Positions 7,572 to 27,024 of a stretch of 64,000 nucleotides of DNA are shown here, in pieces. The notes beneath the pieces were generated by a model. That model did no database searches and was not told where the DNA came from. It was given only the letters and a program-made list of their open reading frames with translations. This stretch comes from a virus (lineage: Duplodnaviria; Heunggongvirae; Uroviricota; Caudoviricetes): IMG/VR virus record IMGVR_UViG_3300010344_001272, positions 11,046 through 75,045 of that record; one strand, written 5' to 3'. Numbering within the stretch: position 1 is the stretch's first letter; every line of letters begins with the position of its first letter. A program made the translations under genes and the position numbers.

Positions 7572-7931
7572 ATGGAAGACAAAGATTTAGATATTAGAAT
7601 CACTCGGGGATCAGGCCCAGGGGGACAACATAAAAACAAGGTGGAAACTTGTGTTATTATAACTCATATTCCAACTGGTTTACAAGAGAAGTGTCAAGAA
7701 ACTCGTAGTAAAATTCAGAATCTTGAACTTGCTAAAGAAAGAATTAAAGCGAAAGTAGAGAAACTACAAGAGCAAAAAATTCAAGAGGCAAAAAATGAAC
7801 GCAGACGTGAATTAATTAAAAACCAGAAAGTAGTTCGTACATATAACTTTGTAAGAAATGAAGTTTATGATCATCGGACAAAAACAAAACACGATCTGAA
7901 AAAGTTTATGAGAGGAGAAATTGATCTATGA
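7572..7931 (+). CDS. arfB: ArfB-like peptidyl-tRNA hydrolase / class I release factor GGQ domain protein
   Basis: ITRGSGPGGQHKNKVETCV GGQ motif block followed by basic C-terminal tail. Confidence 0.75.
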   Translation: MEDKDLDIRITRGSGPGGQHKNKVETCVIITHIPTGLQEKCQETRSKIQNLELAKERIKAKVEKLQEQKIQEAKNERRRELIKNQKVVRTYNFVRNEVYDHRTKTKHDLKKFMRGEIDL

Positions 7932-8119
7932 AACTTACACTCGAAAAAGATATAAAAGTAGCTGTTGAAGTAAATGGTGAAAAATTCATTGGATCCGAAG
8001 AGGGAATTTTATACCAAAGTATTACAGATACAGAAATTTTACTTTATATTAAAACAGAACCTGAAGGAAAAGAAATAAAAATTAAAATAGCAAAAGATGT
8101 TAATAATCAAGGTGCATGA
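7928..8119 (+). CDS. hypothetical small protein
   Basis: 63-aa ORF, overlaps start of bS21 gene in another frame. Confidence 0.25.
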   Translation: MKLTLEKDIKVAVEVNGEKFIGSEEGILYQSITDTEILLYIKTEPEGKEIKIKIAKDVNNQGA

Positions 8120-8297
8120 GGGTGAAAATATTGACAAAGCCCTTAAGAGATTCAAAAGAAAATTCAACATGATTGGAGTTGCTAGTGAATTACGTGAAAG
8201 AGAACAATTCACAAAGCCTTCTGTAAAAAAGAGGCAAATAAAACAGAAAGCTAAATACAGACAATACATGCAGAGAAAAGAAGAAATGGGCGAATAA
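8097..8297 (+). CDS. rpsU: ribosomal protein bS21
   Basis: MLIIKVHEGENIDKALKRFKRKFNMIGVASELREREQFTKPSVKKRQIK matches the S21 family pattern over its full length. Confidence 0.8.
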   Translation: MLIIKVHEGENIDKALKRFKRKFNMIGVASELREREQFTKPSVKKRQIKQKAKYRQYMQRKEEMGE

Positions 8298-8301
8298 CAA
8301 T

Positions 8302-8377
8302 GGTTCGGTAGCTCAATGGATAGAGCAACAGCCTTCTAAGCTGTCGGTTGAGCGTTCGAGTCGCTCCCGAATCACCA
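8302..8377 (+). tRNA. tRNA-Arg(TCT), CCA encoded (second copy of this anticodon)
   Basis: acceptor GGTTCGG/CCGAATC, D arm GCTC-AATGGATA-GAGC, anticodon stem ACAGC/GCTGT, loop CTTCTAA. Confidence 0.85.
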
Positions 8378-8393
8378 ATTTAAATTTTCATTT

Positions 8394-8876
8394 ATGACAG
8401 CACTTTATATTATAATGTTAACCATATTTGTTGGTTATATTTCATGGATATGGGCCAGATATGGTGTATTACCATCTATTTCCCATAGTTATTATTCACT
8501 TCCCGACAATCTTAAATTTATATTTACTTTATGGTCTTGGGGATATGCAATTCCAGCTATCATTGTAGCTTCAACACCATTAATGTTTTTTGCCGGGGCG
8601 GGAATTTGTTTTGTAGGTGCGGCAGCAGCGTATCGAGAAAAAATGACCGAGACTGTTCATATAATTGGAGCAGCATGCGCAATTATTTTTAGTCAATTAT
8701 CTATAATAATCGATTTTGATATGTGGTATGTTACGGTTGCTTTTGCTGCAATTGCTTTACCACTTGCCTTAACAAGATTTTCAAAGAAAGGAATATGTCC
8801 AAATAGAACTTGGTGGGTTGAAATTTTAGCATTTATAACAATAGCTTTAGTATTAGGAATAAAATTATGGTCGTAA
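8394..8876 (+). CDS. polytopic membrane protein
   Basis: about 5 hydrophobic helices. Confidence 0.4.
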   Translation: MTALYIIMLTIFVGYISWIWARYGVLPSISHSYYSLPDNLKFIFTLWSWGYAIPAIIVASTPLMFFAGAGICFVGAAAAYREKMTETVHIIGAACAIIFSQLSIIIDFDMWYVTVAFAAIALPLALTRFSKKGICPNRTWWVEILAFITIALVLGIKLWS

Positions 8877-9142
8877 AGTTGGTATCATATGATGGTTCAT
8901 ATCCAAACTTATGTAGTGGTAAGTTAATTCTTTCTGTTGATGAAAAGGAATGGGTTTTTCCATCATATTGTTTATCAAGTGGCGGCAGCGTATGGTTTGA
9001 CAATGACTGGAGTGAACATGTTGAAGATGGTCCTTGGGGTATAGGTGAATGGCCTGAAGGTTTTCCTGAAGAAGCTAAGGAAGAAGCTTTAAGTGTTATT
9101 AACGAAGAAATTTCCTGGGGTTGTTGCGGAGGATGTGTATGA
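8867..9142 (+). CDS. hypothetical protein
   Basis: 91-aa ORF with C-terminal CCGGC. Confidence 0.3.
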   Translation: MVVKLVSYDGSYPNLCSGKLILSVDEKEWVFPSYCLSSGGSVWFDNDWSEHVEDGPWGIGEWPEGFPEEAKEEALSVINEEISWGCCGGCV

Positions 9143-9384
9143 CAGCGCAAGAATACATAGATGCTTGGGATATAAGATGGGAAAATCATTTTAGATACTC
9201 TGTTTTAGTTGAAGAATTAAGTAATTTACAAGGAATTGATGTAGTTGCCCAGATGGAATCTGTTTTAATAGCCGAAATGACTAAGGAGGTTGACAAACAT
9301 ATACAAAACGATATACAGAGATTATTTAATATGAGTATACAACAATCAGAAAAAATTAACACAATAGTCGATGGAATCCTATAA
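9121..9384 (+). CDS. hypothetical protein
   Basis: 87-aa ORF. Confidence 0.3.
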   Translation: MLRRMCMTAQEYIDAWDIRWENHFRYSVLVEELSNLQGIDVVAQMESVLIAEMTKEVDKHIQNDIQRLFNMSIQQSEKINTIVDGIL

Positions 9385-10003
9385 TTCCATACCAAAATGG
9401 AGTGAAGATTATTTTGGCAAATATGTATTCGCATTTGACAAAATAGACGGTTCCAATTTCAGAGCTGAATGGAATCGAAAATTATCTAAAAAATCCCGCT
9501 TTACATATGGTTTTGGAAAATTTGGAACCAGACAAGACAGAATAAAATTTATTAAAGATCCATATTGTGAAGGTATTGAAATATTTAAAAACAAATTTTC
9601 GGAAAAATTAGATAAGATATTCTTAGAAAACAAAACGTTTAGAAACATTGATAATATCACAGTATTTGGAGAATTTTATGGATCTAAAAGCTTTGCTGGA
9701 ATGCATGATTGGAGTGAAAAACATGATGTCAAAATTTTTGATGTATTTTTAGATAGAAAAGGAATTTTGCCCCCATCTGATTTTATAAAAATATTTGAAG
9801 GATTAGATACATGCAAACTTATATTTGCGGGAATTTTTTCTCAAAGTTATTTAGAGTTAATTGAAAAAAATATATTAAATTTACAAGAAGGAGTTGTTTG
9901 TAAAGGGGTTGAAAACCAAGAGGTATTCATGTTCAAAATAAAAACACTGAAATGGCTTCAGAAGGTAAGAGATTTATATGGTAATGAAAGAACTGATTAT
10001 TAG
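9371..10003 (+). CDS. ATP-dependent RNA ligase, Rnl2-like nucleotidyltransferase domain only
   Basis: motif I KIDGSNFRAEW, motif III FGEFYG, motif IV EGVVCKG, motif V FKIK. Confidence 0.6.
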   Translation: MESYNSIPKWSEDYFGKYVFAFDKIDGSNFRAEWNRKLSKKSRFTYGFGKFGTRQDRIKFIKDPYCEGIEIFKNKFSEKLDKIFLENKTFRNIDNITVFGEFYGSKSFAGMHDWSEKHDVKIFDVFLDRKGILPPSDFIKIFEGLDTCKLIFAGIFSQSYLELIEKNILNLQEGVVCKGVENQEVFMFKIKTLKWLQKVRDLYGNERTDY

Positions 10004-10262
10004 ATCGGCAATTACAGTTGACGAACTTGTTCTTCAATGGGAAGCAAAACAAGAGTTACGATTTATTTTTGATGGATTTCCTCAATTAAATATACTTCGT
10101 CCAACTGCATCATTGATCGCAAATGATTTAGTTTCAGTACAACCCATGGCAGCTCCTACAGGAGTATTCCATTATATAGAATATGTTTATAATGGAACCC
10201 CAGATAGACCGTTTAATGAAATGCAACATGATTGCGGAATTGAAAAAACTTTAAGTGAATGA
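9978..10262 (+). CDS. 94-aa ORF homologous to the N-terminal conserved core of gp23-family major capsid proteins (fragment or mini-paralog)
   Basis: LVSVQPMAAPTGVFHYIEYVYNG aligns with VNVVPMPGPTGVISYLDYVYAGG of the full capsid gene at 39095 and with T4 gp23 ICGVQPMNSPTGQVFALRAVYG. Confidence 0.4.
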   Translation: MVMKELIIRSAITVDELVLQWEAKQELRFIFDGFPQLNILRPTASLIANDLVSVQPMAAPTGVFHYIEYVYNGTPDRPFNEMQHDCGIEKTLSE

Positions 10263-10444
10263 AGAACTATAAATCTAAAAGAAAAGATTTAAGAGATCGA
10301 AAAAGAGAGATAATGGAAGTTGGATTTGACTCTTCAAAAGATAGAAAAAGAGTTGTTGAATCCTTTAAAAGAGAATCTCGTTCATTGAAAAGAAGTGAAA
10401 AGAATTCTTTCAAGAATTCTTGGAGAAGTGAATACGGTATTTAA
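10259..10444 (+). CDS. hypothetical basic protein
   Basis: 61-aa K/R-rich ORF. Confidence 0.2.
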   Translation: MKNYKSKRKDLRDRKREIMEVGFDSSKDRKRVVESFKRESRSLKRSEKNSFKNSWRSEYGI

Positions 10445-10521
10445 GGCCTTATAGCTCAATTGGATAGAGCACCTGACTACGGATCAGGAGGTTATGGGTT
10501 CGACTCCCTTTAAGGTCACCA
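10445..10521 (+). tRNA. tRNA-Arg(ACG), CCA encoded
   Basis: acceptor GGCCTTA/TAAGGTC, D arm GCTC-AATTGGATA-GAGC, anticodon stem CCTGA/TCAGG, loop CTACGGA. Confidence 0.85.
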
Positions 10522-10523
10522 TC

Positions 10524-10597
10524 GCCTTCATAGCTCAATTGGATAGAGCATCTGACTTCGGATCAGATGGTTGAGGGTTCGAATCCTTCTGAGGGCG
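10524..10597 (+). tRNA. tRNA-Arg(TCG)
   Basis: acceptor GCCTTCA/TGAGGGC, same D arm, anticodon stem TCTGA/TCAGA, loop CTTCGGA. Confidence 0.85.
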
Positions 10598-10613
10598 CTT
10601 AATATATAATAAG

Positions 10614-10814
10614 ATGAGTGATAAACTTGAAAATTTGTTGGCTATTTTGTTCTGTGTCATATTTGCAATTAGTGTAGGAATATATTACTTTGTTAGTATG
10701 ACTATTGGGGGGATGGATGGCCGGTTTGACGATTTGTTTGGGGATTTCATACATGTTAGCTCAATCATTTCGTTATGCTTGGATAAGTATCAAGCAGCTA
10801 TCAGACCAAATTGA
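10614..10814 (+). CDS. small membrane protein
   Basis: 66 aa, one or two TM helices. Confidence 0.25.
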   Translation: MSDKLENLLAILFCVIFAISVGIYYFVSMTIGGMDGRFDDLFGDFIHVSSIISLCLDKYQAAIRPN

Positions 10815-10848
10815 TAGTTTAAAAAAATAAAGAGTATGGACGACGAGG

Positions 10849-11082
10849 GTGGTAGTCAAAAAAGAAAAATTATCAACTGTGTTTCTAATGTTAGGAACTT
10901 TCTTCAATCCATTAGGATACGATGCGCTATTGAAGGCTTTACTGGATTGGACAGGCAATTATTGGCTTTCAATTTCCATTTTTTACCTTGTCTCAGCTTG
11001 TTTCTTTACGCTATATTTTGTATTTTCTAAAACAAATCCATTGAATTTGTTTCGAAAAAATAAAAAAAATGCCCATTCATAA
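10849..11082 (+). CDS. small membrane protein
   Basis: 77 aa, hydrophobic. Confidence 0.25.
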   Translation: MVVKKEKLSTVFLMLGTFFNPLGYDALLKALLDWTGNYWLSISIFYLVSACFFTLYFVFSKTNPLNLFRKNKKNAHS

Positions 11083-11383
11083 AATATTCGTAAAAATTTT
11101 TTTAAAATTATTTTCTGGATTCAAATTTTGTTTTATATTCACGTCATATTTCTTACACAATATGACCCTTTTAAAGCCCACCTTTTACGGAGACACAATG
11201 GAACTTCTGGTTCCAGTTAAATCCAATGATTATTTTTTAGAACAGGTTGACGTCGATATGTTTACTGGAAAAAGACGGTACTATAATATTATTGACGGGC
11301 ACGCGAAGGTCTATGGTTATTTACCCGGAGAAGGCGAACGTATTCCTAATCCAAAAACAACAATTTGGTTCTTTCCAAACTAG
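11069..11383 (+). CDS. hypothetical protein
   Basis: 104-aa ORF. Confidence 0.3.
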   Translation: MPIHKIFVKIFLKLFSGFKFCFIFTSYFLHNMTLLKPTFYGDTMELLVPVKSNDYFLEQVDVDMFTGKRRYYNIIDGHAKVYGYLPGEGERIPNPKTTIWFFPN

Positions 11384-11404
11384 TAACATTTAAATTTATA
11401 CAAT

Positions 11405-11887
11405 ATGAAAAAAGTTTTGCTCTTCCTCGTAATGTTTGTTTCACTCAGTATGATAACAAACGCACAAACTCCTATGGCATTACGTGTCCAGGGAGGGTAT
11501 TCTTGGATTAATGGTGTCGTTGGTGGTGAACTTCAAATTGGAAAATTTGGAGTAAGCGGTGGATGGATGCCATGTAAAATGCCATTGAGTGGTGATAAAA
11601 TAAGCTCAATTGGTGGTGCTCTTACTTACTACACACTTCCTGCAGACGAAGAAGGATATTCTTATTATGCATCAGTGGGTGTTGCTTCTCAAGGCTACCG
11701 ATATGAATTAACAAGTTCATGGGGATATGGCGAAGAAGCAACTTTACCTATGACAATCATAATGGTTGGTTACAAATATGACAGTGGCGGAGTTAACTTT
11801 AAACTCGGCGGAGGTTATGGATGGTGTGAAGAAGCTGGCGCCTGGACATTTGAAGCAACATTGGGATTTACACTTTTCGGAAATTAA
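11405..11887 (+). CDS. secreted Gly/Tyr-rich protein, possible small beta-barrel
   Basis: signal peptide MKKVLLFLVMFVSLSMITNAQT, alternating G/Y/W-rich strands. Confidence 0.4.
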   Translation: MKKVLLFLVMFVSLSMITNAQTPMALRVQGGYSWINGVVGGELQIGKFGVSGGWMPCKMPLSGDKISSIGGALTYYTLPADEEGYSYYASVGVASQGYRYELTSSWGYGEEATLPMTIIMVGYKYDSGGVNFKLGGGYGWCEEAGAWTFEATLGFTLFGN

Positions 11888-11888
11888 C

Positions 11889-12554
11889 ATGAAAAAACTA
11901 ATCTTTTTGCCGATTTTGATATTATTGATGTTTTCGTGTGAAGAACCGAACACAGCACCTAATATCGTTAATTTGATAGCAAGTGCTCAAACGGTAGAAA
12001 GCGAAGGAACATTGATGTTATCATGTGAAGCCCAAGACCTAGATGGAGACCCTATAATGTACAGATGGTCTTGTGTTTCAGGAACTTTCTTATCTGGAAC
12101 GTCTTCTTCGACTGTAATGTGGAAGGCTCCTCGTACGAATTCTGAAACAATTTCTAAGATTACTGTGCAAATAGCTGATGCAGAACATCCATTCGATAGT
12201 CCATTCATGGATTCACGCGCCATAATAATAATGGTAGACCCCTCTGCGCCAAGTTGTGTTAAAGAAAATTATGGAACGATGATAATCAAGAACACTAATA
12301 CTTATGCTATACGAGTTTATTGTTCAAGAGAAGACCCAAGCTGCCCACAGTGTGTAACTATTGACCCAACTCCAGTGGTAGCATTGGCTCCTAATCAATC
12401 CACAACGTTTAATATCAAACCTGGAAATATTGTGGCATGGTGTATTTCAGAAGCTAATTGGCAATTGGGGTTGGGGGGTCCTTGGACTACAACTATACCA
12501 TTTCCATTAACTCAATGTGAAATAAGAACATTAAATTGGGGACCTGGCAAATAA
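11889..12554 (+). CDS. lipoprotein with Ig/PKD-like segment and C-terminal Cys-rich small beta domain
   Basis: start at internal ATG giving MKKLIFLPILILLMFSC lipobox (ORF-track N-terminal extension overlaps upstream gene); C-terminal CVKENYGTMIIKNTNTYAIRVYC shared with 13108 ORF. Confidence 0.45.
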   Translation: MKKLIFLPILILLMFSCEEPNTAPNIVNLIASAQTVESEGTLMLSCEAQDLDGDPIMYRWSCVSGTFLSGTSSSTVMWKAPRTNSETISKITVQIADAEHPFDSPFMDSRAIIIMVDPSAPSCVKENYGTMIIKNTNTYAIRVYCSREDPSCPQCVTIDPTPVVALAPNQSTTFNIKPGNIVAWCISEANWQLGLGGPWTTTIPFPLTQCEIRTLNWGPGK

Positions 12555-12565
12555 CAATAAAAAAT

Positions 12566-13090
12566 ATGAAAAATCTACTAATCATTTTCATCACAACATT
12601 GTTTCTTACCTCGTGTGGGTGGGGAACCTTCGTGCAGGATATGAATTCTGCAAACAATAATCCTAACCGAACTTCATTTGCTGCAGAAATGCAAGAAATT
12701 CGAGATGCTGGCGGTGATATAACGTATACTGCTTTTATGACACATAATGCCATATTTCATGGTGATAATGTACCAAAAACGTTGGAGCAGCACAATAGTT
12801 ATTTCTGTGAATATACTCTTAACGATCAAACATATTTCAAAATTGTTGCATATGAAGCCACAGATCACTTGACAGCACTTGTTTGTACGGATCTAAAACT
12901 TGAAGGTTATTATGAACAAGAAGGACCATTCAATTGGTTTGCTGGGTGTATTGATATGGCTGATGATCAGAAATGCAAATTGCTTTTTTCTGCAGAGTCT
13001 TCTACTTTTCTTGTTATTTATAAAAAGGGAGAATATGGAAGGGCCTTTAAAGGAAGCATATTAAGTGGAATAAATGTACCTCGTAATTAA
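12566..13090 (+). CDS. lipoprotein
   Basis: MKNLLIIFITTLFLTSC lipobox at first ATG; ORF-track start 12536 is a TTG upstream. Confidence 0.45.
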   Translation: MKNLLIIFITTLFLTSCGWGTFVQDMNSANNNPNRTSFAAEMQEIRDAGGDITYTAFMTHNAIFHGDNVPKTLEQHNSYFCEYTLNDQTYFKIVAYEATDHLTALVCTDLKLEGYYEQEGPFNWFAGCIDMADDQKCKLLFSAESSTFLVIYKKGEYGRAFKGSILSGINVPRN

Positions 13091-13107
13091 TTAATTAACA
13101 CAAATAA

Positions 13108-13356
13108 ATGAAAACAAGAGCTCTTTTAAAATTTTCAGCTATTATAGTAGCTGGATTGATGATCCTAGGATTAAATTCCTGTACTAAAAAACCTTGTGAA
13201 AAGGATAATTTTGGAACTGTAATTGTCACTAACCATACAGGTCAGGTGATTTATGTCGATTGTACACAGGCAGGCAGCGATTATAATGACGAACGAATGC
13301 TTGGTATCGGACAGTCAACTACATATCACATGACTCCCGGACAAATAACCGAATAG
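13108..13356 (+). CDS. small lipoprotein of the CxKDNFGTVIVTN family
   Basis: lipobox ILGLNSC; CEKDNFGTVIVTNHTGQVIYVDC parallels 11889 ORF C-terminus. Confidence 0.4.
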   Translation: MKTRALLKFSAIIVAGLMILGLNSCTKKPCEKDNFGTVIVTNHTGQVIYVDCTQAGSDYNDERMLGIGQSTTYHMTPGQITE

Positions 13357-13547
13357 GCAATTGAGGCCTGGGACTATCCGAACGGTTCATGGTATACTGA
13401 CAGCTATTATCTCGGTCAGTGCGAAACACATAACGATCCCTGGACAGACGGTAAAAAGAAAAGTACCAAAAACTTGGAAAAATTGGATGTGAAGGTAAAT
13501 TCCACTATAAAGATTACCCACGAATAATTTTTCAATTTCACATATAA

Positions 13548-13578
13548 AAAGAGCTCTAGTTTAGAGCTCTTTTTTTGT
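13548..13578 (+). terminator. Rho-independent terminator
   Basis: AGAGCTCTA gtt TAGAGCTCT followed by T7. Confidence 0.65.
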
Positions 13579-13580
13579 TT

Positions 13581-13598
13581 GGATATATAATAAAATTA
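13581..13598 (+). promoter_or_regulatory. T4-late-like promoter motif GGATATATAATAAAATTA
   Basis: 10 nt upstream of M23 peptidase ATG. Confidence 0.4.
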
Positions 13599-13607
13599 TT
13601 TCTATGG

Positions 13608-14558
13608 ATGAAGTTTTATACATATCAAAAAGATACTGTTTCGTATCAACGATATAAGTTTTTTAGACTAAAATTCATCATTCCCTTTTTACTTTTTCAA
13701 TCAGTTATAGCATTTATTGTTTTTATTTTAATTGCTACATTTTATACAACACCTAAAGAAAAAATATTAAAACAAGATGTTGCATATTTGTTATACGAAT
13801 TTGATAATGTAAATAAAAGGATGATTGAAACTGAAGCCACATTAGAACAAATTAAACAAAATGATAGTATCATTTATCAATCCTTGTTCGATGTTAATAC
13901 CATAGCAAAAAAGGAATTAAATGTTTATTATGAGGATTTAGAAGGAAATAAATACAGTCAAATGGTTGAATTAACAAATCAAAAACTATCTGAATTAAGC
14001 GCAAGATTAGCAAAAGAATTATATCGTTTAGATGGAATGGTTAAAACTGCTTATTCACATCAAGAAATGCTAACTCATTTGCCTGCTATTCAGCCTATTG
14101 ATAATAAAGATTTAAAAAGGACTGCGTCAGGATGGGGTATGAGAATTCATCCAGTTTATAACATTCAAAAATTCCACTATGGATTGGACTTTACAGCACC
14201 TACAGGAACTTCTATTTATTCAACTGGGGACGGGGTAGTTGAATATGCAATTCCTTATACTAGCAAAGATTCCCAAGGCTATGGAAATGTGATGATTATC
14301 AATCATGGATATGGATATAGAACCTTATATGCCCATATGAATAAATTTAAAGCAAAGATTGGACAGCAAGTTAAAAGAGGAGAAATAATTGGATATGTTG
14401 GAAATACAGGAATATCTACAGGTCCTCATTTACATTATGAAGTTATAAAGGATGGGCAAAAAGTAAATCCTATCTATTATCTATTTAATAGTTTGACTCC
14501 TGAAGAATATCAAAAAATAATCGAGATATCGAATTCAATAACTAAATCTTATGATTAA
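13608..14558 (+). CDS. M23 family metallopeptidase (LytM-like), membrane anchored
   Basis: HYGLDFTAPTGTSIYSTGDGVV ... NHGYGYRTLYAHM ... GNTGISTGPHLHYEV; N-terminal TM helix; start moved to first ATG after promoter box. Confidence 0.75.
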   Translation: MKFYTYQKDTVSYQRYKFFRLKFIIPFLLFQSVIAFIVFILIATFYTTPKEKILKQDVAYLLYEFDNVNKRMIETEATLEQIKQNDSIIYQSLFDVNTIAKKELNVYYEDLEGNKYSQMVELTNQKLSELSARLAKELYRLDGMVKTAYSHQEMLTHLPAIQPIDNKDLKRTASGWGMRIHPVYNIQKFHYGLDFTAPTGTSIYSTGDGVVEYAIPYTSKDSQGYGNVMIINHGYGYRTLYAHMNKFKAKIGQQVKRGEIIGYVGNTGISTGPHLHYEVIKDGQKVNPIYYLFNSLTPEEYQKIIEISNSITKSYD

Positions 14559-14584
14559 AATGGAAGATTAAAACTTTTGATGAA

Positions 14585-14974
14585 TTGAAGAATAAAATAA
14601 ATAAAATAACTATGGAAGATATTACGAAAGAACAATTTCTTGAGGTTTATAATCAGCATTTGCCAAATAAGTGGATAAAATTTATTTACAAATATTTTTC
14701 TCAAGGAACTACGGAAGAAAATTTGAAACCAAGTAAAATAATAACTGCTATCTTACTTATTTTATTTGTTTCAGGATTTTTTGCTACAGTTTTAGGATTA
14801 CCCAAGGCAGCCATTTTGCCTATAGTAATACTTTATGCTATCATATTAACAGCATTAGTTGGTTCAATGTTTTCAGCAGTAATATTGAATAATTTAAGAA
14901 TACGTAAAATACGAAAAAAATTAGGGTTAACAGTGTGGCAATATAATTTACTTGCAGACTTATACGTAGAATGA
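14585..14974 (+). CDS. membrane protein
   Basis: two TM helices. Confidence 0.35.
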   Translation: MKNKINKITMEDITKEQFLEVYNQHLPNKWIKFIYKYFSQGTTEENLKPSKIITAILLILFVSGFFATVLGLPKAAILPIVILYAIILTALVGSMFSAVILNNLRIRKIRKKLGLTVWQYNLLADLYVE

Positions 14975-15453
14975 AAAAACTTTTAATAATATTATCTCTC
15001 ATATTATTTTCATGTGGCCCTTCTCCAGAGCAAAAAATAATAAAATCTTTTGAAGATGGCAGACATCGTAATCATTTTAAAATAAATAATGTATCTATTT
15101 ATGACACTATTTATTATGTAGATATTATTGATTCACTTGAATTTTACGAAAATAAAGTTCGTTTAATTCGAACACAAATAGATGGTCTTAGGGGATTTAG
15201 AGATAGTGTTTTTAAATTAAATTACCCAGATTCTACTCGCAGATCAATTCTTCAAAAGAGATTTGATTTGGACAGGGAATTACAAAGAGATTTACATCAT
15301 GCTTCAAGCCAACAAATGAATAGATATACATTTTATAATATGAATGATAGTATTTGTGGTTATCTAGTCAAAATTTATACTCCTCGAGATACATTTGATT
15401 TTGTTGTTACATCAAAATATACAATAGTTTGTCCAACTTTTATGTTTTATTAA
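14971..15453 (+). CDS. lipoprotein
   Basis: MKKLLIILSLILFSCGPSPE lipobox. Confidence 0.4.
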   Translation: MKKLLIILSLILFSCGPSPEQKIIKSFEDGRHRNHFKINNVSIYDTIYYVDIIDSLEFYENKVRLIRTQIDGLRGFRDSVFKLNYPDSTRRSILQKRFDLDRELQRDLHHASSQQMNRYTFYNMNDSICGYLVKIYTPRDTFDFVVTSKYTIVCPTFMFY

Positions 15454-15454
15454 A

Positions 15455-16048
15455 ATGAATCCATTTATTGTTTATAAGGAAATATTAGATAAATATCTGC
15501 ATTCTGATTCTTCTTTAAAATTGCAACAAGCTTGGAGTGAACCTCATAGAAAATATCACACAACTGAGCATTTAATATCTGTCTTAAAATATTTAGACAA
15601 ATATAGATTTGGGCTGCCTAATGAATTTTATGATGCTTTAGTGTTAGCTGCTTTTTTTCATGATTGTTACTATGATCCTAAAAGTTCTAGAAATAATGAA
15701 GATGAATCAATACGTCGATTTCTTTCTGAATTTCGAACAAAGGGTGATAATTGGAATATACGGAATGCTGTGATGGCAATGATCGAAGCAACTAAATATC
15801 GCAAACGTCCATCACAATATTTAGTTCGTTTATTTTGGGAAGCGGACAATCATCAATTTTATGATGGATATGAAACACTTTTAAAGAATGAACATTTAAT
15901 TAGACAAGAATTTATTCATCTTCCTAAGTCTGTTTATAGAACTAATCGTATAAAATTTCTAAAAACTAACATCGGTCTTTTTAATTCTAATGTTGATAAT
16001 GATCTAAGAAAACTGATGAAATACGTCGAGGATATATATAAAAATTAA
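15455..16048 (+). CDS. HD-domain phosphohydrolase-like protein
   Basis: HRKYHTTEHL ... AAFFHDCYYDP resembles H..H...HD metal site. Confidence 0.4.
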   Translation: MNPFIVYKEILDKYLHSDSSLKLQQAWSEPHRKYHTTEHLISVLKYLDKYRFGLPNEFYDALVLAAFFHDCYYDPKSSRNNEDESIRRFLSEFRTKGDNWNIRNAVMAMIEATKYRKRPSQYLVRLFWEADNHQFYDGYETLLKNEHLIRQEFIHLPKSVYRTNRIKFLKTNIGLFNSNVDNDLRKLMKYVEDIYKN

Positions 16049-16056
16049 TTATTCAG

Positions 16057-16422
16057 ATGGAAGATGTTAAGTTAGTAGCGGAATCATTACAAGACTTTGA
16101 TAAAATTGATGAAGGAATAGGTGATTTCTTCGCTGGTGCCAAATCAGCAATTTCTTTAGCCCTTAAAAATCCTAATGATGAAGATAAAGTAAATTCAGCT
16201 GTAAAAACTGCTTTTGCTAGACAATTTGGAAAATATCCTAAAATTAAAGAGACTATACTAGGATGGGAATTACAAAAGAAAATAGAGCTATTAAAATTAG
16301 CAGCTAAGAGATTAGAAGATAAAAAGATTGGGTCTTTATCCGTTGTTAAAAAGGATGGAAAAATTTTAGTTGTTGGAGTTCCATTAGAAGGAGGAGCAAC
16401 AACTTCGACAGGAGTTAGATAA
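16057..16422 (+). CDS. hypothetical protein
   Basis: 121-aa ORF. Confidence 0.35.
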   Translation: MEDVKLVAESLQDFDKIDEGIGDFFAGAKSAISLALKNPNDEDKVNSAVKTAFARQFGKYPKIKETILGWELQKKIELLKLAAKRLEDKKIGSLSVVKKDGKILVVGVPLEGGATTSTGVR

Positions 16423-16469
16423 AAAAAGCTGCAAAAAATTTTTTAGATTCAAAAACTTTTTGTATTTTT

Positions 16470-16487
16470 GCGTATATATAATAAAAG
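16470..16487 (+). promoter_or_regulatory. T4-late-like promoter motif GCGTATATATAATAAAAG driving a 23-codon micro-ORF (16501-16572)
   Basis: motif, tiny ORF MKCHSIHISSISSTESCLWPSYVN, then terminator. Confidence 0.35.
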
Positions 16488-16596
16488 AAATTTTTATAGA
16501 ATGAAGTGTCATAGCATACATATTAGTTCGATTAGTTCAACTGAAAGTTGTCTGTGGCCTTCTTATGTAAATTGAAGTACTAACTTTAAAAATTAA

Positions 16597-16630
16597 GGGA
16601 AGGCCTAAAAAGACCTTCCCTTTTTTGTTT
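16597..16630 (+). terminator. Rho-independent terminator
   Basis: GGGAAGG ... CCTTCCC followed by TTTTTTGTTTT. Confidence 0.65.
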
Positions 16631-16635
16631 TATAT

Positions 16636-16711
16636 GCTCTTTTAGCTCAGACGGTAGAGTACTTCCTTGGTAAGGAAGAGGTCTTGGGTTCGATCCCCAA
16701 AAAGAGCTCCA
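16636..16711 (+). tRNA. tRNA-Thr(GGT), CCA encoded
   Basis: acceptor GCTCTTT/AAAGAGC, anticodon stem CTTCC/GGAAG, loop TTGGTAA, T arm TTGGG-TTCGATC-CCCAA. Confidence 0.85.
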
Positions 16712-16713
16712 AT

Positions 16714-16803
16714 GGATGGGTGGCCGAGTGGTCTATGGCGTTAGTCTTGAAAACTAATGATCGAGTGATTGGTCCGTGGGTTCGAATCCCACCTCATCCG
16801 CCA
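16714..16803 (+). tRNA. tRNA-Ser(TGA), type II, CCA encoded
   Basis: acceptor GGATGGG/CTCATCC, 3-bp D stem GCC/GGC, anticodon stem TTAGT/ACTAA, loop CTTGAAA, long variable arm, T arm GTGGG-TTCGAAT-CCCAC. Confidence 0.8.
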
Positions 16804-16805
16804 AA

Positions 16806-16895
16806 GGAGGTGTAAAGCGTAATTGCGTATCGCCCCGGTCCCGAAAACCGGTTCCGTCGTAAGATGGAGTGTAGGTTCGAGTCCTATCGCCTCCG
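16806..16895 (+). tRNA. tRNA-Ser(CGA), type II
   Basis: acceptor GGAGGTG/CGCCTCC, anticodon stem CCGGT/ACCGG, loop CCCGAAA, variable-arm stem TCCGTC/GATGGA, T arm GTAGG-TTCGAGT-CCTAT. Confidence 0.7.
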
Positions 16896-16901
16896 CAAAG
16901 A

Positions 16902-16974
16902 CCCGATGTGGCGCAACGGTTAGCGCAAGCGGCTTATATCCACGAGGTTGGGGGTTCGAATCCCTCCATCGGGA
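16902..16974 (+). tRNA. 73-nt tRNA with anticodon loop CTTATAT (TAT, Ile/AUA); weak anticodon stem
   Basis: acceptor CCCGATG/CATCGGG 7/7, D arm GCGC-AACGGTTA-GCGC, T arm GGGGG-TTCGAAT-CCCTC; anticodon stem AGCGG/CCACG has two mismatches. Confidence 0.5.
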
Positions 16975-16979
16975 CTATT

Positions 16980-17061
16980 CCGGATGTGGATGAATGGTTT
17001 AGTCACCAGTCTGATACACTGGGTTCTTTGAACAATGTAGGTTCGAGTCCTACCGTCCGGA
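16980..17061 (+). tRNA. 82-nt type-II-like tRNA with anticodon loop CTGATAC (GAT, Ile)
   Basis: acceptor CCGGATG/CGTCCGG, anticodon stem CCAGT/ACTGG 5/5, 14-nt variable arm with GTTC/GAAC stem, T arm GTAGG-TTCGAGT-CCTAC; long variable arm atypical for Ile. Confidence 0.5.
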
Positions 17062-17098
17062 CTAAGTATTTTCTTGAAATAATATGCTGTTGATTTTA

Positions 17099-17115
17099 GA
17101 TATATAAAATAAAAA
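17099..17115 (+). promoter_or_regulatory. T4-late-like promoter motif GATATATAAAATAAAAA
   Basis: 3 nt upstream region of endonuclease paralog. Confidence 0.4.
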
Positions 17116-17117
17116 GA

Positions 17118-17750
17118 ATGGCAAGAAAATCAAGAAAATTTATTTGTGAAAAATGTGGAAATGAATTTGAATCAAAAAGAAAAGATGTTAGATTTTGTTC
17201 TAATAGTTGCAGGGCTTCAATTATAAATATGGGTAGAAAACCATTTAATTTTGTTGAAGGAAAAATTAGATATTGTTTAACATGCGGAAAAAAACTTCAT
17301 CATCAAACTAAAACAGGATATTGTGTTGACCATTATGTAACAGATGATTTTAAAGACAAAATTAGCAAAGGCGTTAAAAAAATAGGTGGGGGCGGATATC
17401 GAAAAAACTCAGGAAGAGGTAAACATGGGTGGTATAAAGGATTTTGGTGTGACAGTAGTTGGGAATTAGCTTGGGTTATTTATAATTTAGATCACGGAAT
17501 AAAATTTGAACGTAATACTAAAGGATTTGAATATATTTTTGAGGAAAAAATTTATAAATATTATCCAGATTTTAAAATATTAAAAGACAATTTGTACATA
17601 GAAATAAAAGGATGGATAGATGAAAAAAACAAAGCAAAAATTTCTCAATTTAAAGGTTTTTTAAAGGTATTATTTAGAAATGACATGAAATATATTTTTG
17701 AATACGTTGAAAATAAATACGGAAAACAATTTATAAAAATGTATGAATAA
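17118..17750 (+). CDS. putative homing-type endonuclease, paralog of 3390-4052
   Basis: N-terminal CEKCGNEFESKRKDVRFCSNSC zinc ribbon and C-terminal YYPDFKILKDNLYIEIKGW block. Confidence 0.4.
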   Translation: MARKSRKFICEKCGNEFESKRKDVRFCSNSCRASIINMGRKPFNFVEGKIRYCLTCGKKLHHQTKTGYCVDHYVTDDFKDKISKGVKKIGGGGYRKNSGRGKHGWYKGFWCDSSWELAWVIYNLDHGIKFERNTKGFEYIFEEKIYKYYPDFKILKDNLYIEIKGWIDEKNKAKISQFKGFLKVLFRNDMKYIFEYVENKYGKQFIKMYE

Positions 17751-17834
17751 CATGGAGAGTTGCCAGAGTGGTCTATCGGGGCAGCCTGCTAAGCTGTTGA
17801 ACGCGATATGTGTTCCGTGAGTTCGAACCTCACA
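17744..17834 (+). tRNA. tRNA-Ser(GCT), type II, CCA encoded
   Basis: acceptor GGAGAGT/ACTCTCC, anticodon stem GCAGC/GCTGT, loop CTGCTAA, T arm GTGAG-TTCGAAC-CTCAC. Confidence 0.8.
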
Positions 17835-17895
17835 CTCTCCGCCACTGAAAACGATGCTAAAGTTATCCCTGTTTTAAGTAGCGGAAGTTTTAGGG

Positions 17896-17982
17896 ATGAC
17901 AAACTGGAGAGTTGGCAGAGTTGGTCTATTGCGGCAGCCTGGAAAGCTGTGATCGAGAGATTGGTCCGTGGGTTCGAATCCC
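17896..17982 (+). tRNA. tRNA-Ser(GGA), type II
   Basis: acceptor GGAGAGT/ACTCTCC, anticodon loop CTGGAAA, T arm GTGGG-TTCGAAT-CCCGC. Confidence 0.8.
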
Positions 17983-18075
17983 GCACTCTCCGCACTTGGT
18001 GTAATCACGGAACGAACCGTGTCTTTGGAAATGGCCACCAAAGAAGCATTTGATGTTGATGCAGCCTTGGTATAC

Positions 18076-18140
18076 GGTGGTATTAGTGTTAACGGTTAGC
18101 ACGCAAGTCTGTGGAACTTGTAGTGAAGGGTTCGAATCCC
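18076..18140 (+). tRNA. tRNA-His(GTG) with encoded G-1 opposite C73
   Basis: G-1 then acceptor GTGGTAT/ATACCAC 7/7, D arm GTGT-TAACGGTTA-GCAC, anticodon stem CAAGT/ACTTG, loop CTGTGGA; T stem only 3 clean pairs. Confidence 0.75.
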
Positions 18141-18178
18141 ACATACCACCAAATGGACAAAATTGTCCCTTCTAGACT

Positions 18179-24030: not shown

Positions 24031-24434
24031 AATATTGGGTATTGTCTGCATTACTATTATTTTCAATGAGTTTGTTTTCACAAACTTATGATAGTTTTGT
24101 AGCATATTCACCGACATATGAAAGTACTGTTGAATCCAAAGAAACTACTATTTCCATAAAAGAAGATAAAAATTCCATTACATTTTATAATGCAACATAT
24201 GATGGAGAGGTTACGAATCTTAGAATAGATTCCGTTAAAACGAAATATTGGACCTATGAATTGGGAGAAGTAAAAACTTTCTTCTGTACGGATTTAGATG
24301 AGGATATGATGATTATTGTATTAGATTTAATAAATCTGAAAAATACAATAAAACTTATTTATATTTGGGATGAAATATCTATAGAAGAATATTCATTTAT
24401 AGTTAAAAAAGATGAAAGCAGAATTACAAAATAA
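23997..24434 (+). CDS. secreted hypothetical protein
   Basis: signal peptide after N-terminal K-rich stretch. Confidence 0.35.
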   Translation: MGKNKETNKEMKYWVLSALLLFSMSLFSQTYDSFVAYSPTYESTVESKETTISIKEDKNSITFYNATYDGEVTNLRIDSVKTKYWTYELGEVKTFFCTDLDEDMMIIVLDLINLKNTIKLIYIWDEISIEEYSFIVKKDESRITK

Positions 24435-24894
24435 ACTCGTAAGTAAATATCCAGAATTTTTTGAATATTTGAAGGAGAATGAAACTCCTATGATTGATCC
24501 TTCACAACCCGTTATACACGAGGTTGAAAAATTATTAAATCAAGAGAAAATAGTTCTTCCAATGCAGTTTGGAATTGAATGCGGAAATGGCTGGTATTGG
24601 TTGTTAGATCAATTAATGGACACAATTTATTCTTATTGTAAAAACAATAATAAACCTATTCCGCATGTTTCTCAGATAAAGGAAAAATGGGGAGGTCTTT
24701 GTTTTTATGCAGGTGGAGATCAAATGATTCATGGCATGATATGGCTTGCAGAACACATGTCATATAGCATATGTGAAACCTGTGGAACAAACAAAAATGT
24801 GGGCCAAACCGAAGGGTGGGTTTACACTATCTGCAAAGATTGCTATGAAAAAAACGAAAGAGCAAAAAACTTAAACTTTAAACTTAGAACATAA
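24412..24894 (+). CDS. hypothetical Cys-rich protein
   Basis: 160-aa ORF. Confidence 0.35.
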   Translation: MKAELQNKLVSKYPEFFEYLKENETPMIDPSQPVIHEVEKLLNQEKIVLPMQFGIECGNGWYWLLDQLMDTIYSYCKNNNKPIPHVSQIKEKWGGLCFYAGGDQMIHGMIWLAEHMSYSICETCGTNKNVGQTEGWVYTICKDCYEKNERAKNLNFKLRT

Positions 24895-25103
24895 TGGCAG
24901 AATCAAAAGCAGCAGCTTCAGGTGGCGTATCATTAGCAACTGTATTAGTTGCTATATTTGTGGTTCTTAAATTAACCCATGTTATTGATTGGTCTTGGTG
25001 GTGGGTATTCTCACCTTGGTGGATTGGGCTTGCGATATTCATAGGAGTATTAGCAATAATCGGTCTAATTGCTGGAATAGTATTAATTTTTAAAAACTTG
25101 TGA
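24894..25103 (+). CDS. small two-helix membrane protein (holin-like topology)
   Basis: 69 aa, two hydrophobic helices, W-rich. Confidence 0.35.
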   Translation: MAESKAAASGGVSLATVLVAIFVVLKLTHVIDWSWWWVFSPWWIGLAIFIGVLAIIGLIAGIVLIFKNL

Positions 25104-25104
25104 A

Positions 25105-25332
25105 ATGAGTAAAGTAACTACCTATGAAAGACTTCCAGAAAGTCTTGGAGGATTTGAAGTTGAAGTATTTTGGGAACTCGGCGATCAATATGATGACGCT
25201 GGTGATGGTCATTGCTTCTTCTATCATGCAGATGGTTATTCTCCATCAGGATATAGATTCTCTGGATCAGCCAGTGTCGTTGATGAAGAATGGGACTCTG
25301 TTGAAGATGTTGAATTTGAAGGAGAAGAATGA
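25105..25332 (+). CDS. small highly acidic protein
   Basis: 75 aa, D/E-rich. Confidence 0.3.
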   Translation: MSKVTTYERLPESLGGFEVEVFWELGDQYDDAGDGHCFFYHADGYSPSGYRFSGSASVVDEEWDSVEDVEFEGEE

Positions 25333-25919
25333 AAACTTGGCTCCTTATTTTCATAATATTATTATTCTTTGCATTTTTATTAGGATGGATAGGATTTTTA
25401 ATATTAGGAGCATTTACTATAGCATTAATTATTAAACGTATGAAAAAACAAAATCGAATTATTTTAGTTGGACCCACTGCATCAGGAAAAAATTTCATTA
25501 GATCTAAATTTGCCGAAAGGGGATTTAGTTTTGATGTATCATATACAACTCGTGAACCCAGGGAAGGAGAAGAATTTGGAGTCGATTATAATTTTATCTC
25601 CAAGAACGAATTTGAAAAAATGATAAAGGACAATGCCTTTTATGAATGGGTTGAATATAATGGAAACTATTATGGTACTGGTTTATGGGAATTCAAACAT
25701 TCTGATGTATTCATAATGGAAACAGATGGAATTAAACATTTGAAACCAAAGCACAGAAAGAAATCATTAGTAATGTTTGTCAATACTCCTGAAAATGTTC
25801 GAATTGAACGAATGAAGGAAAGAGGATGGGATGATGACAAAATTGCCAATCGTATAAAAACCGACAAAGAAAAATTTGATAATTTTACAGATTTTGATTT
25901 GCAAATTCAATCGATATGA
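25329..25919 (+). CDS. gmk: guanylate kinase-like nucleoside monophosphate kinase with N-terminal membrane anchor
   Basis: P-loop GPTASGKN, SYTTREPREGEEFGVDYNFIS ... YYGT signature. Confidence 0.65.
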   Translation: MKTWLLIFIILLFFAFLLGWIGFLILGAFTIALIIKRMKKQNRIILVGPTASGKNFIRSKFAERGFSFDVSYTTREPREGEEFGVDYNFISKNEFEKMIKDNAFYEWVEYNGNYYGTGLWEFKHSDVFIMETDGIKHLKPKHRKKSLVMFVNTPENVRIERMKERGWDDDKIANRIKTDKEKFDNFTDFDLQIQSI

Positions 25920-26491
25920 ATGTTGCTATCTATGGTGGTGCATTTAATCCCATCACCTTAGCACATATACAAGTAATTCAGGCTGTTTTAAATCATGGGT
26001 TTGATGAAATTTGGATAACTCCAACATTTAAACACAGATTTAATAAGATGATGGAATCGTCTGATCACAGATTAAAAATGTGTGAAATTGTAGCTGAAAC
26101 AGATAAACGAATTCGTGTGTTTGACTATGAAATTAAACATCAGCTTTCAAATGGAACATATGATTTCATAAATCGATTAAAACAAGAAAAAGAATTAAAT
26201 CATAACTTTAGCATGGTTATTGGTTTAGATAATGCAAATATTTTTGATAAATGGGCCAATAGTGAATTACTTAAAAAAGCTATTCCGTTTGTTGTAATTT
26301 CTAGACCAGGATATGAAGTCATTCCTAATTCTTGGTATTTAAATGCACCACATATTTTTATACAAACGGATGTCATTAATGTTTCTTCAACAGTAGTTAG
26401 AGAATTAATAAAGAGAGATATAGATGCTTCTAAAAAATTCCTGTTATATGATGTTTGGGAGTATATATTAAATAATAATCTTTACTTATGA
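25916..26491 (+). CDS. nicotinate/nicotinamide mononucleotide adenylyltransferase
   Basis: IYGGAFNPITLAHIQ nucleotidyltransferase (H/T)xGH-type motif, length 191 aa. Confidence 0.6.
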   Translation: MNVAIYGGAFNPITLAHIQVIQAVLNHGFDEIWITPTFKHRFNKMMESSDHRLKMCEIVAETDKRIRVFDYEIKHQLSNGTYDFINRLKQEKELNHNFSMVIGLDNANIFDKWANSELLKKAIPFVVISRPGYEVIPNSWYLNAPHIFIQTDVINVSSTVVRELIKRDIDASKKFLLYDVWEYILNNNLYL

Positions 26492-27024
26492 TACATCCTA
26501 TAGTAACATATGGAAGTGATTTATTAACTCAGAAATCTGGAGAAATTCCAAGAAATTTTCCAAACATTCATGAGTTGATAGATGACATGTTTGAAACCAT
26601 GCATAAAGCTAATGGTGTAGGATTATCAGCTATTCAAATCGGAATTCCATTACGAATTTTTGTCATTGAAGTAACTCGTCAACGTGCCGATGATTTTGGT
26701 TTTAGAGGTATATTTATAAATCCATACATTCGAAAAGAATTTGGAGATAAAGTAAAATTTACCGAAGGATGCCTTTCCGTTCCCCTTATTACCGCTATGG
26801 TAGAAAGAAGTGCCGAAATAGAATTAGAATATTATGATGAATATTGGAAACATCATGTTCATAAATTTGATGGAATGGCAGCAAGAATAATTCAACATGA
26901 ATATGATCACTTAGAAGGCATAATTTATGTTGAAAGATTAAACTCCCTTTGGAAAGAGGCACTTAAAAATCCATTACAAGAAATTAAAGAAAAGAAGTTC
27001 GAAGTCAATTATTTAATAAAATAG
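26488..27024 (+). CDS. def: peptide deformylase
   Basis: GVGLSAIQIG, EGCLSVP, QHEYDHLEG motifs. Confidence 0.8.
   Translation: MIHPIVTYGSDLLTQKSGEIPRNFPNIHELIDDMFETMHKANGVGLSAIQIGIPLRIFVIEVTRQRADDFGFRGIFINPYIRKEFGDKVKFTEGCLSVPLITAMVERSAEIELEYYDEYWKHHVHKFDGMAARIIQHEYDHLEGIIYVERLNSLWKEALKNPLQEIKEKKFEVNYLIK

Follow-up and report, generated by a model that had tools for sequence, protein, structure and literature searches.

A stand-alone phage release factor composed of domain 3 and a domain 4 remnant, encoded with bS21 and an RNA ligase in a large phage related to Lak-like megaphages

The translation-gene repertoires of huge phages were reportedly treated in 2019 by Mizuno et al., as cited by Al-Shayeb et al. 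Huge phages carry ribosomal protein S21, the release factors RF1 and RF2, peptide deformylase and large sets of tRNAs (Al-Shayeb et al. 2020, PMC7162821), and deformylase, NAD+ enzymes and nucleotide kinases are well documented in large phages (PMC7162821, PMC11662467). Freshwater Bacteroidetes phages encoding bS21 are large, have a G + C (GC) content of 31–34%, 5–25 tRNAs and the standard genetic code, and their bS21 is Flavobacteriia-like (Chen et al. 2022, PMC9723584). The tRNAs, RNA ligases and PTH2 of jumbo phages have been read as ribosome-rescue kits (PMC7824862), and PrfH with RtcB has been proposed to couple a release-factor homologue to RNA repair in answer to nuclease attack (PMC6514570). 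Here we analyze a 64,000-nucleotide stretch of a caudoviricete genome (IMG/VR record IMGVR_UViG_3300010344_001272, positions 11,046–75,045; hereafter the window), which encodes a 119-residue release factor homologue, here termed mini-RF (7572–7931, plus strand), in a tRNA array together with bS21 and an RNA ligase.

The mini-RF comprises the complete catalytic GGQ domain of release factors (domain 3) and a three-stranded remnant of domain 4. It scores 88.9 bits against Pfam RF-1 (cut-off 35) and 100.7 bits against the NCBIfam RF1 model, where the match covers positions 212–332 of 347; at 96–101 bits it falls below the prfA cut-offs of 400–423 bits. The best PHROG match is to a full-length release-factor family (positions 216–336 of 355), and the match to phrog_3122 covers the GGQ core only (E 4.7e-9). 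When compared with PDB sequences, the entire 119-residue protein aligns to RF1, RF2 and mtRF1a (residues 220–339 of Escherichia coli RF1 and 196–314 of Thermotoga maritima RF1), C12orf65 and PrfH chains align to the GGQ core only, and all 45 matches are RF1, RF2, mitochondrial RF1-type, PrfH or C12orf65 proteins. The AlphaFold2 (AF2) model (predicted local distance difference test score, pLDDT, of 86.7) contains the GGQ β-sheet with the GGQ tripeptide at residues 17–19, the long helix α7 (residues 47–83) and then three short strands (residues 86–119), which align with RF1 domain 4 and carry the RTYNF and DHR motifs. Among the 50 Foldseek matches listed of 385 (E ≤ 10) we find the same release-factor classes, bar one match, the C12orf65 structure 2rsm. 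Foldseek alignments to class-I release factors span 110–125 columns, and ribosome-bound conformations fit better than free ones (query-normalized template modeling score, TM-score, of 0.50–0.65 to ribosome-bound RF1 and RF2). The switch-loop segment is two residues shorter in the PDB alignment and lacks the G-x-G-D-R-S-E signature. Pfam detects no PCRF region (domains 1 and 2) in mini-RF, and the codon-reading tripeptides PxT and SPF are absent from it. The reading frame is closed by a stop three codons ahead of the ATG, and the neighboring upstream gene is unrelated; mini-RF therefore has no hidden N-terminal domain. The mini-RF is the C-terminal third of an RF1-type factor, with no codon-reading domain, no GTPase-interacting domain and no ArfB tail.

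The mini-RF family contains at least 120 clusters at 90% identity; their members are 92–141 residues long, nearly all of them 117–141, and the clusters listed come from metagenome sources only. In 27 diverse mini-RFs the GGQ motif, Tyr91, Asp100 and Arg102 are invariant, with the remaining RTYN and DHR residues at least 90% conserved. The ratio of nonsynonymous to synonymous substitution rates (dN/dS) is 0.054, ranging from 0.05 to 0.17 against relatives. A scan of 185,579 prokaryotic species, each represented by a single genome, found no cellular relative with more than 41% identity. These comparisons indicate that the mini-RF family is real, length-conserved and under purifying selection. 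It lies outside every class in the 2019 release-factor survey (RF1, RF2, ArfB, PrfH, ICT1, C12orf65 and MRPS35; PMC6514570), and its architecture is not described in the open-access full texts of Burroughs and Aravind (PMC6514570), Iyer et al. (PMC7824862) and Al-Shayeb et al. (PMC7162821).

An exhaustive HMMER search ranks about a dozen short representatives (112–153 residues) on top, followed by a continuum to factors of 180–235 residues and full-length factors. Distant IMG/VR relatives (31–43% identity) are mostly stop-to-stop frames of ∼180–230 codons that lack domain 1 and have a domain 2 with PPT (HRWQRVPPTEKRGRVHTST); the homologue in LR756504 keeps part of domain 2 with PPT, whereas Lak-B4 encodes an RF2 of full length that carries SPY. 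Given this continuum of lengths, mini-RF seems to stand at the end of a series of truncations among phage RF1-like genes. The long proteins at the top of the HMMER list (P0244, P0254, P0246) were considered as Rosetta-stone fusions and turned out to be RF1 genes of the ordinary kind, whose duplicated segments are artefacts of assembly. Many IMG/VR contigs (our L020–L085; for example L021 at 9725–10378, L029 and L065) carry RF1-like open reading frames (ORFs) with PPT, sometimes PPN, in the HRWQRVPPTEKRGRVHTST segment, several of them in tRNA arrays or beside an RNA ligase. The domain-1-less ORFs of this set make up a second class of truncated release factors in phages, larger than that of the mini-RFs. 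Contig L005 (2942–3349 and 6644–7228) encodes a mini-RF of lower identity (55%), which lies 2.6 kb from a gene for a PTH2-type peptidyl-tRNA hydrolase and has a DHFR gene 0.3 kb downstream; there is no S21 gene nearby.

In the window, the mini-RF gene is followed by the genes for bS21 (8097–8297, plus strand) and a minimal ATP-type RNA ligase (9371–10003, plus strand). The 66-residue bS21 is full-length, of the Bacteroidota type and without an N-terminal extension. It scores 67.5 bits against PF01165 (cut-off 27) and 65.7 bits against TIGR00030 (cut-off 28.95), and also matches phrog_21469. The best PDB matches (9i5v and Flavobacterium johnsoniae 7jil) align from residue 1, and Tyr54 of the phage protein aligns with Tyr54 of F. 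johnsoniae bS21 (7jil_z). The protein is 51–62% identical to copies in LR756504, LR756502 and LR745206, and no Shine-Dalgarno motif is present upstream of its gene. The 210-residue RNA ligase consists of the nucleotidyltransferase domain only (43.6 bits against Pfam RNA_ligase, PF09414, cut-off 27; phrog_548) and contains the motifs KIDGSN (KxDG), FGEFYG and EGVVCKG...KIK. RtcB is absent near mini-RF; the linked ligase is the PF09414 enzyme. A tRNA-Arg(UCU) gene (8302–8377, plus strand) starts 4 nucleotides past the S21 stop codon, and a tRNA-Val gene (6672–6749, plus strand) lies upstream of mini-RF in the same tRNA array (ARAGORN). The preliminary description of this DNA had the S21 and GGQ genes adjacent and flanked by tRNAs: the tRNA array is indeed there, and strict adjacency gives way to one 63-residue ORF between the two genes. 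We located no terminator-like sites between 6 and 11 kb.

The intervening ORF, u63 (7928–8119, plus strand), starts in an ATGA overlap with the mini-RF stop codon and ends in a 23-nucleotide overlap with the S21 start. Its product is acidic (isoelectric point, pI, 4.85) and evolves faster than mini-RF (dN/dS 0.146), with no family match in Pfam, PHROG and further profile searches. Homologues occupy the same position in contigs L006–L010 and L177–L179, L002 has a 63-residue ORF there (22% identity), and L180 has none. A role for u63 as an ArfA-like basic adaptor was considered and is unlikely, the protein being acidic. Upstream of mini-RF, the module opens with u104 (7245–7559, plus strand; 104 residues), whose conservation is unusually high for a phage gene: the 120 clusters listed of 214 are 63–96% identical to the window copy, on contigs of up to 669 kb. 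It carries the invariant motifs RVVHGGRGDYVEL, EKIYWQ and YADYK. Its confident AF2 fold is a β-tent, as seen in Yippee/Mis18, the CULT domain of cereblon, MsrB, TCTP/Mss4 and the RIG-I C-terminal domain, without the zinc-binding cysteines. Searches of u104 against Pfam, PHROG, NCBIfam and PDB profiles returned no family assignment, and a split release factor with u104 as the lost domain 2 was rejected on these empty searches and on the predicted fold. Two further genes are found inside the tRNA array, just before the module: a NUMOD3 homing-endonuclease-like protein is encoded at 5730–6284, and a stand-alone Peptidase_C39 domain, a cysteine protease of the bacteriocin-processing type, at 6761–7267; the latter is conserved in L006–L008.

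At least seven lineages (window, L006–8, L002–4/L011, L009–10, L177, L178, L179 and L180) share the gene order u104, mini-RF, (u63), S21; across them mini-RF is 64–100% identical. In five lineages, among them the window, the RNA ligase gene is found 1–3 kb past S21 (so also in L006–8 and L177–L180), and tRNA-Arg(UCU) also follows S21 in L006, L007 and L002. The mini-RF gene is found inside tRNA arrays in the window, L001 (an array of 18 tRNAs), L002, L006, L007 and L009. Other phage contigs (L044, L054, L071–73) encode release-factor homologues beside the same ligase family. Neither the shortened release factor nor its fixed pairing with S21 and an RNA ligase corresponds to a class in the catalogues and papers that we consulted.

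A second cluster is located at 25–27 kb. Here the genes for up75 (25105–25332, plus strand; 75 residues), a guanylate-kinase-family kinase (gmk; 25329–25919, plus strand), a nicotinate/nicotinamide-mononucleotide adenylyltransferase of the NadD/NMNAT family (nadD; 25916–26491, plus strand) and peptide deformylase (def; 26488–27024, plus strand) are joined by 4-nucleotide ATGA overlaps and are followed by a virion structural protein (phrog_1383). The preliminary description had listed def, the adenylyltransferase and the kinase in the reverse of this order. Gmk matches phrog_1815 and Pfam Guanylate_kin (82.7 bits, cut-off 25.2; residues 41–194), and the GMP-site residues TTRxPRxGE and DYxF are present. 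NadD narrowly passes TIGR00482 (116.1 bits, cut-off 112.45), scores 64.6 bits against CTP_transf_like (cut-off 21) and has intact GGAFNPITLAH ((H/T)xxH) and SSTVVRE (SxxxxR) motifs; neither NAMPT nor NadE nor NadR was found in the window, so that nadD stands alone. Def scores 164.2 bits against Pep_deformylase (cut-off 22.8), 161.5 against NF001159 (cut-off 125) and 133.8 against TIGR00079 (cut-off 103.95), matches phrog_2890 and retains the GVGLSAIQ, EGCLS and HEYDH motifs.

The kinase gene is conserved in eight related IMG/VR loci (L086–L093). The def gene follows in seven of them; the eighth, L088, ends ∼0.9 kb past gmk, and we found no def there. Conservation of up75 upstream of gmk extends to L086 and L087, the up75–gmk junction being an ATGA overlap, and of the seven loci with a readable downstream flank, only L089 and L093 have nadD inserted ahead of def (it is absent in L086, L087 and L090–92). 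The kinase had been described as membrane-anchored. Residues 1–37 are hydrophobic in the window and the conserved core starts at Met38 (25440), but in L086 and L087, which are 92–94% identical relatives, the hydrophobic segment is a separate 45-residue ORF that ends in an ATGA overlap with a 159-residue gmk starting MKKQKRIILVGP, and the 160–161-residue kinases of L088–L093 have no such segment. The apparent anchor is not conserved in the enzyme: it is either a lineage-specific in-frame fusion of a small membrane ORF, seen in this genome only, or a stretch bypassed by translation restarting at Met38. An Asn residue ending Walker A is frequent in this phage group (window 25365–25919, L086–L093), with GPTASGKN, GPAAAGKN and similar sequences; others have GPTCSGKT.

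The five ORFs of the preliminary description are all found at the positions it gave, and they pass the Pfam gathering thresholds for RF-1, Ribosomal_S21, Guanylate_kin, CTP_transf_like and Pep_deformylase. S21, NadD/NMNAT and Def also exceed their own NCBIfam cut-offs, and PHROGs families were assigned to S21, the guanylate-kinase-family kinase and the deformylase. Its general reading, a phage kit for translation and metabolism, is right; in huge phages such genes are usually taken to support or redirect translation and the nucleotide and cofactor pools (PMC7162821). The idea of a single toolkit does not hold: the genes fall into two unrelated clusters, each conserved separately in related phages, with nadD confined to a minority of the loci. 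The 17 kb between the clusters contain mostly unannotatable ORFs, 10 tRNAs, an RNA ligase and an M23 peptidase, and the 7.5–27-kb span is therefore not one functional unit.

The window belongs to a large phage related to Lak-like megaphages. Coding on the plus strand is dense from ∼0.8 to 40.9 kb and includes a head maturation (prohead) protease (36663–39014) and the major head protein (39095–40852). Over 98% of its length, this capsid protein shares 48% identity with that of the ∼540–550-kb Prevotella Lak megaphages; identity is 30–41% to those of the 460–640-kb phages described by Al-Shayeb et al. and 29% to that of Tenacibaculum phage pT24. Near-identical DNA is absent from the GenBank phage collection, where only tRNA-sized matches were found; the IMG/VR contigs L006–L008 share ∼92% DNA identity with the window. 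Bacterial origin of the region was considered and is ruled out by the structural genes, by the IMG/VR relatives and by the lack of a cellular mini-RF homologue above 41% identity. ARAGORN identifies 22 tRNAs, all on the plus strand (2849–18151), with no suppressor tRNA among them. The standard genetic code is used. An alternative code, as in Lak phages, was tried and rejected: recoding of TAG, a rare stop codon here (7 of 99), improves neither the coding density nor the longest ORF.

The host is most likely, on indirect evidence, a member of the Bacteroidota, because S21 is of the Bacteroidota type with Tyr54 and because Shine-Dalgarno motifs are so scarce: cores precede no more than 3 of 109 genes, compared with 6.4% for control positions within genes. 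The leaders are rich in A, which is enriched at positions −13 to −10 and at −3. Such Shine-Dalgarno-poor, A-rich leaders characterize translation initiation in Bacteroidia (PMC7797042, PMC13000457). We also counted a SprB-repeat protein (786–2474) toward this assignment; a σ70 promoter scan did not rise above shuffled expectation and is uninformative where the host belongs to the Bacteroidota. In contig L182 (18.8 kb), a u104 homologue adjoins genes with Por_Secre_tail and PorP_SprF domains (4882–7815), Bacteroidota-specific features of type IX secretion and a further hint to the host range of the phage group. Taken jointly, the family-level gene identities and the phage and Bacteroidota setting can be stated with high confidence.

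In Bacteroidia, bS21 (via Tyr54, which stacks on A1534 of 16S rRNA), bS18 and bS6 sequester the anti-Shine-Dalgarno tail (PMC7797042). When bS21 is missing, ribosomes recognize Shine-Dalgarno sequences again, and host rpsU relies on its own Shine-Dalgarno sequence for autoregulation (PMC7797042, PMC9976891). We propose that phage bS21 would load on host 30S subunits and keep the tail sequestered, escaping rpsU autoregulation since its own gene has no Shine-Dalgarno motif, and that the resulting bS21-replete ribosome pool would be tuned to Shine-Dalgarno-less, A-rich phage leaders. In the peptidyl-transferase center, a GGQ domain hydrolyzes peptidyl-tRNA. The mini-RF may do so without reading a stop codon, and could thereby free ribosomes that stall during infection because an mRNA is broken or a tRNA is cut or missing; the case for this predicted codon-independent rescue role appears to us evenly balanced. 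The conserved domain 4 stub would be its likely docking element, alone or completed by a partner, and damage to RNA would be made good by the phage tRNAs and the RNA ligase, following the logic proposed for PrfH and RtcB. The mini-RF, S21 and the ligase probably constitute a module for ribosome rescue and RNA repair. In the second cluster, the deformylase would process the burst of formyl-Met phage proteins, the kinase would feed the GDP/GTP or dGTP pool and NadD/NMNAT would top up NAD+. For the explanation as a whole, namely two operon-like clusters that support phage protein synthesis in a Bacteroidota phage, we lean slightly in favor. More tentatively, and with considerable doubt, we consider that u104, mini-RF, u63, bS21 and the RNA ligase in the tRNA array could form a phage rescue-and-repair system of a new type, in which mini-RF would be brought to jammed ribosomes by a new adaptor (u104, u63 or ribosomes marked by phage bS21) and would release the peptide, and the ligase would reseal cut tRNA or rRNA.

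Several observations weigh against this explanation. The mini-RF has none of the known elements that target stalled ribosomes (the ArfB tail, PrfH domain 2, or the ArfA-binding domain 2 of RF2), and u63, being acidic, is therefore unlikely to probe the mRNA channel. ATP-type RNA ligases require 3′-OH and 5′-phosphate ends, and our profile searches found no end-healing enzyme (polynucleotide kinase or phosphatase) near the ligase. Distant mini-RFs (L001, L005, L012–L020) have no S21 or ligase gene within 3–10 kb, depending on the contig end, and the linkage is therefore clade-limited. In the second cluster, Gmk scores 103.1 bits against TIGR03263, under the equivalog cut-off of 160.45, and its P-loop (GPTASGKN) has Asn in place of the Ser/Thr of GxxGxGK[ST].

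The best surviving alternative, although still an unlikely one in our view, regards mini-RF as one half of a two-part factor, whose domain 4 sheet is completed by u63, u104 or a host protein, much as ArfA, BrfA and ArfT recruit RF2 or RF1. It would account for domain 4 strands that stay invariant although their usual partner, domain 2, is gone. As candidate partners, u63 is translationally coupled to mini-RF by their shared ATGA and recurs at the same position in several lineages, but is acidic, poorly conserved (the L002 ORF again) and absent in L180; u104 is very strongly conserved and usually lies directly upstream of mini-RF, but its β-tent is unrelated to release factor domain 2 and it also occurs far away from any mini-RF.

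A second alternative, improbable on present evidence, is that the module repairs rRNA damage near the 3′ end of 16S rRNA, of the kind inflicted by colicin E3: peptide release would fall to mini-RF and the resealing of 16S rRNA to the ligase, and bS21 would either hold the 3′-tail-binding element of the platform or take its place. The linkage of a release-factor homologue, an RNA ligase and bS21 in five lineages fits this scheme, as does the contact of bS21 with the 16S 3′ tail (PMC7797042). PrfH and RtcB provide the precedent (PMC6514570), and PDB entry 9mor is among both the sequence and the Foldseek matches of mini-RF. However, mini-RF lacks the domain 2 with which PrfH reads a damaged decoding center (TIGR03072 covers the GGQ part only, at 72.1 bits vs. 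a cut-off of 166.65), the ligase is not of the RtcB type, and a place inside a tRNA array suits tRNA repair better.

The preliminary description had called the GGQ protein ArfB-type, that is, a rescue factor whose basic C-terminal tail senses the empty mRNA channel. The mini-RF does resemble ArfB in being short, stand-alone and basic (pI 9.7) and in lacking codon-reading domains, and its function must likewise be codon-independent. The assignment is nevertheless very improbable: the NCBIfam ArfB model (NF006718) reaches 30.7 bits vs. a cut-off of 100 and matches the GGQ part only (residues 2–86), well short of the RF1 score; ArfB and ICT1 chains are missing both from the 45 PDB sequence matches and from the 50 listed of 385 Foldseek matches; and residues 86–119 align to RF1 domain 4 and are predicted to form three β-strands with RTYNF...DHR, not a linker and a basic helical tail. 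That mini-RF is a decaying, functionless RF1 fragment is effectively refuted: decay could yield a series such as that seen in related contigs, with longer RF1-like genes of ∼180–230 residues with PPT or of full length, but at least 120 clusters hold the narrow length range, catalytic and structural residues vary little or not at all, dN/dS is low, the AF2 model is confident and synteny is held in at least seven lineages.

The window contains additional features outside both clusters. Directly after the capsid gene begins a minus-strand block of about 20 genes (40883–62000; 26–30% GC) with several glycosyltransferases, among them a protein with two glycosyltransferase (GT) domains (45103–47553, minus strand) and a β-glucosyltransferase-like protein (59435–60622, minus strand); it looks like a polysaccharide or glycan-modification cluster carried by the phage. 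The gene directly before that of the prohead protease encodes a patatin-like phospholipase (35427–36488); 1.4 kb further upstream there is a gene for a radical-SAM protein (33100–33996). Among the tRNAs, a tRNA-Ile with anticodon UAU (16902–16975), also found in L002 and L007, is unusual in bacteria, where AUA is normally read by a lysidine-modified CAU tRNA. The ARAGORN call for tRNA-Asp at 3039–3127 is over-long (89 nucleotides).

As a translation and metabolism kit, the gene content is of a known kind, and the gene list alone adds little. What is new is a stand-alone release factor made of RF1 domain 3 and a domain 4 remnant, found only in phage and metagenome sequence, and its stable linkage to bS21 and an RNA ligase. 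If mini-RF is active, neither a codon reader nor a tail in the mRNA channel is needed to target a GGQ domain to ribosomes, which would bear on how rescue factors recognize their substrates, and phage bS21, whose role is unproven, would be tied to ribosome rescue, beyond a bias in initiation. Should the rescue-and-repair reading be true, the module would be a viral counterpart of PrfH–RtcB and a new way of targeting the GGQ domain. The Bacteroidota setting is experimentally tractable, as F. johnsoniae ribosomes and bS21 genetics exist.

Like the huge phages (PMC7162821), the window has bS21, a release factor, a peptide deformylase and many tRNAs; unlike them, with RF1 and RF2 listed there, its factor is domain 3 plus a domain 4 remnant and is tied to S21 in one module. 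With the freshwater bS21 phages (PMC9723584) it shares a large, low-GC genome, tRNAs, the standard code, Bacteroidetes hosts and a Flavobacteriia-like bS21. In those phages bS21 is encoded on the reverse strand in a terminase/capsid/portal block, beside a hypothetical gene, whereas in the window it lies in a tRNA array beside mini-RF and the RNA ligase. The second cluster contains the enzyme families known from cyanophage and huge-phage deformylases, from jumbo-phage NAD+ genes (PMC11662467) and from phage guanylate kinases (phrog_1815), with intact motifs, and differs in being a short chain of overlapping genes beside virion genes, in which nadD is the sole gene of its pathway. Mycobacterial and mycobacteriophage tRNA arrays (PMC5966550; phrog_3122) resemble the window in that a small RF-1-domain gene is embedded in them, often with a homing endonuclease nearby, which in the window is the NUMOD3 protein at 5730–6284; the window protein differs, matching phrog_3122 in the GGQ core only and a full-length release-factor family best.

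Closest to mini-RF in function are the small GGQ hydrolases. ArfB/YaeJ, ICT1, C12orf65 and mini-RF all lack codon-reading domains and are hence codon-independent. ArfB-type proteins insert a basic C-terminal helix, attached through a linker, into the empty mRNA channel (PMC6514570); mini-RF has the strands of RF1 domain 4 in its place. PrfH–RtcB and the module of the window have in common the genetic linkage of an RNA ligase to a release-factor homologue that is truncated. PrfH lacks domain 1 only and retains a domain-2-like module, whereas mini-RF lacks both domains 1 and 2. The PrfH partner RtcB seals 3′-phosphate and 5′-OH ends, whereas the ligase of the window is a minimal ATP-type enzyme of PF09414, and bS21 is part of the set.

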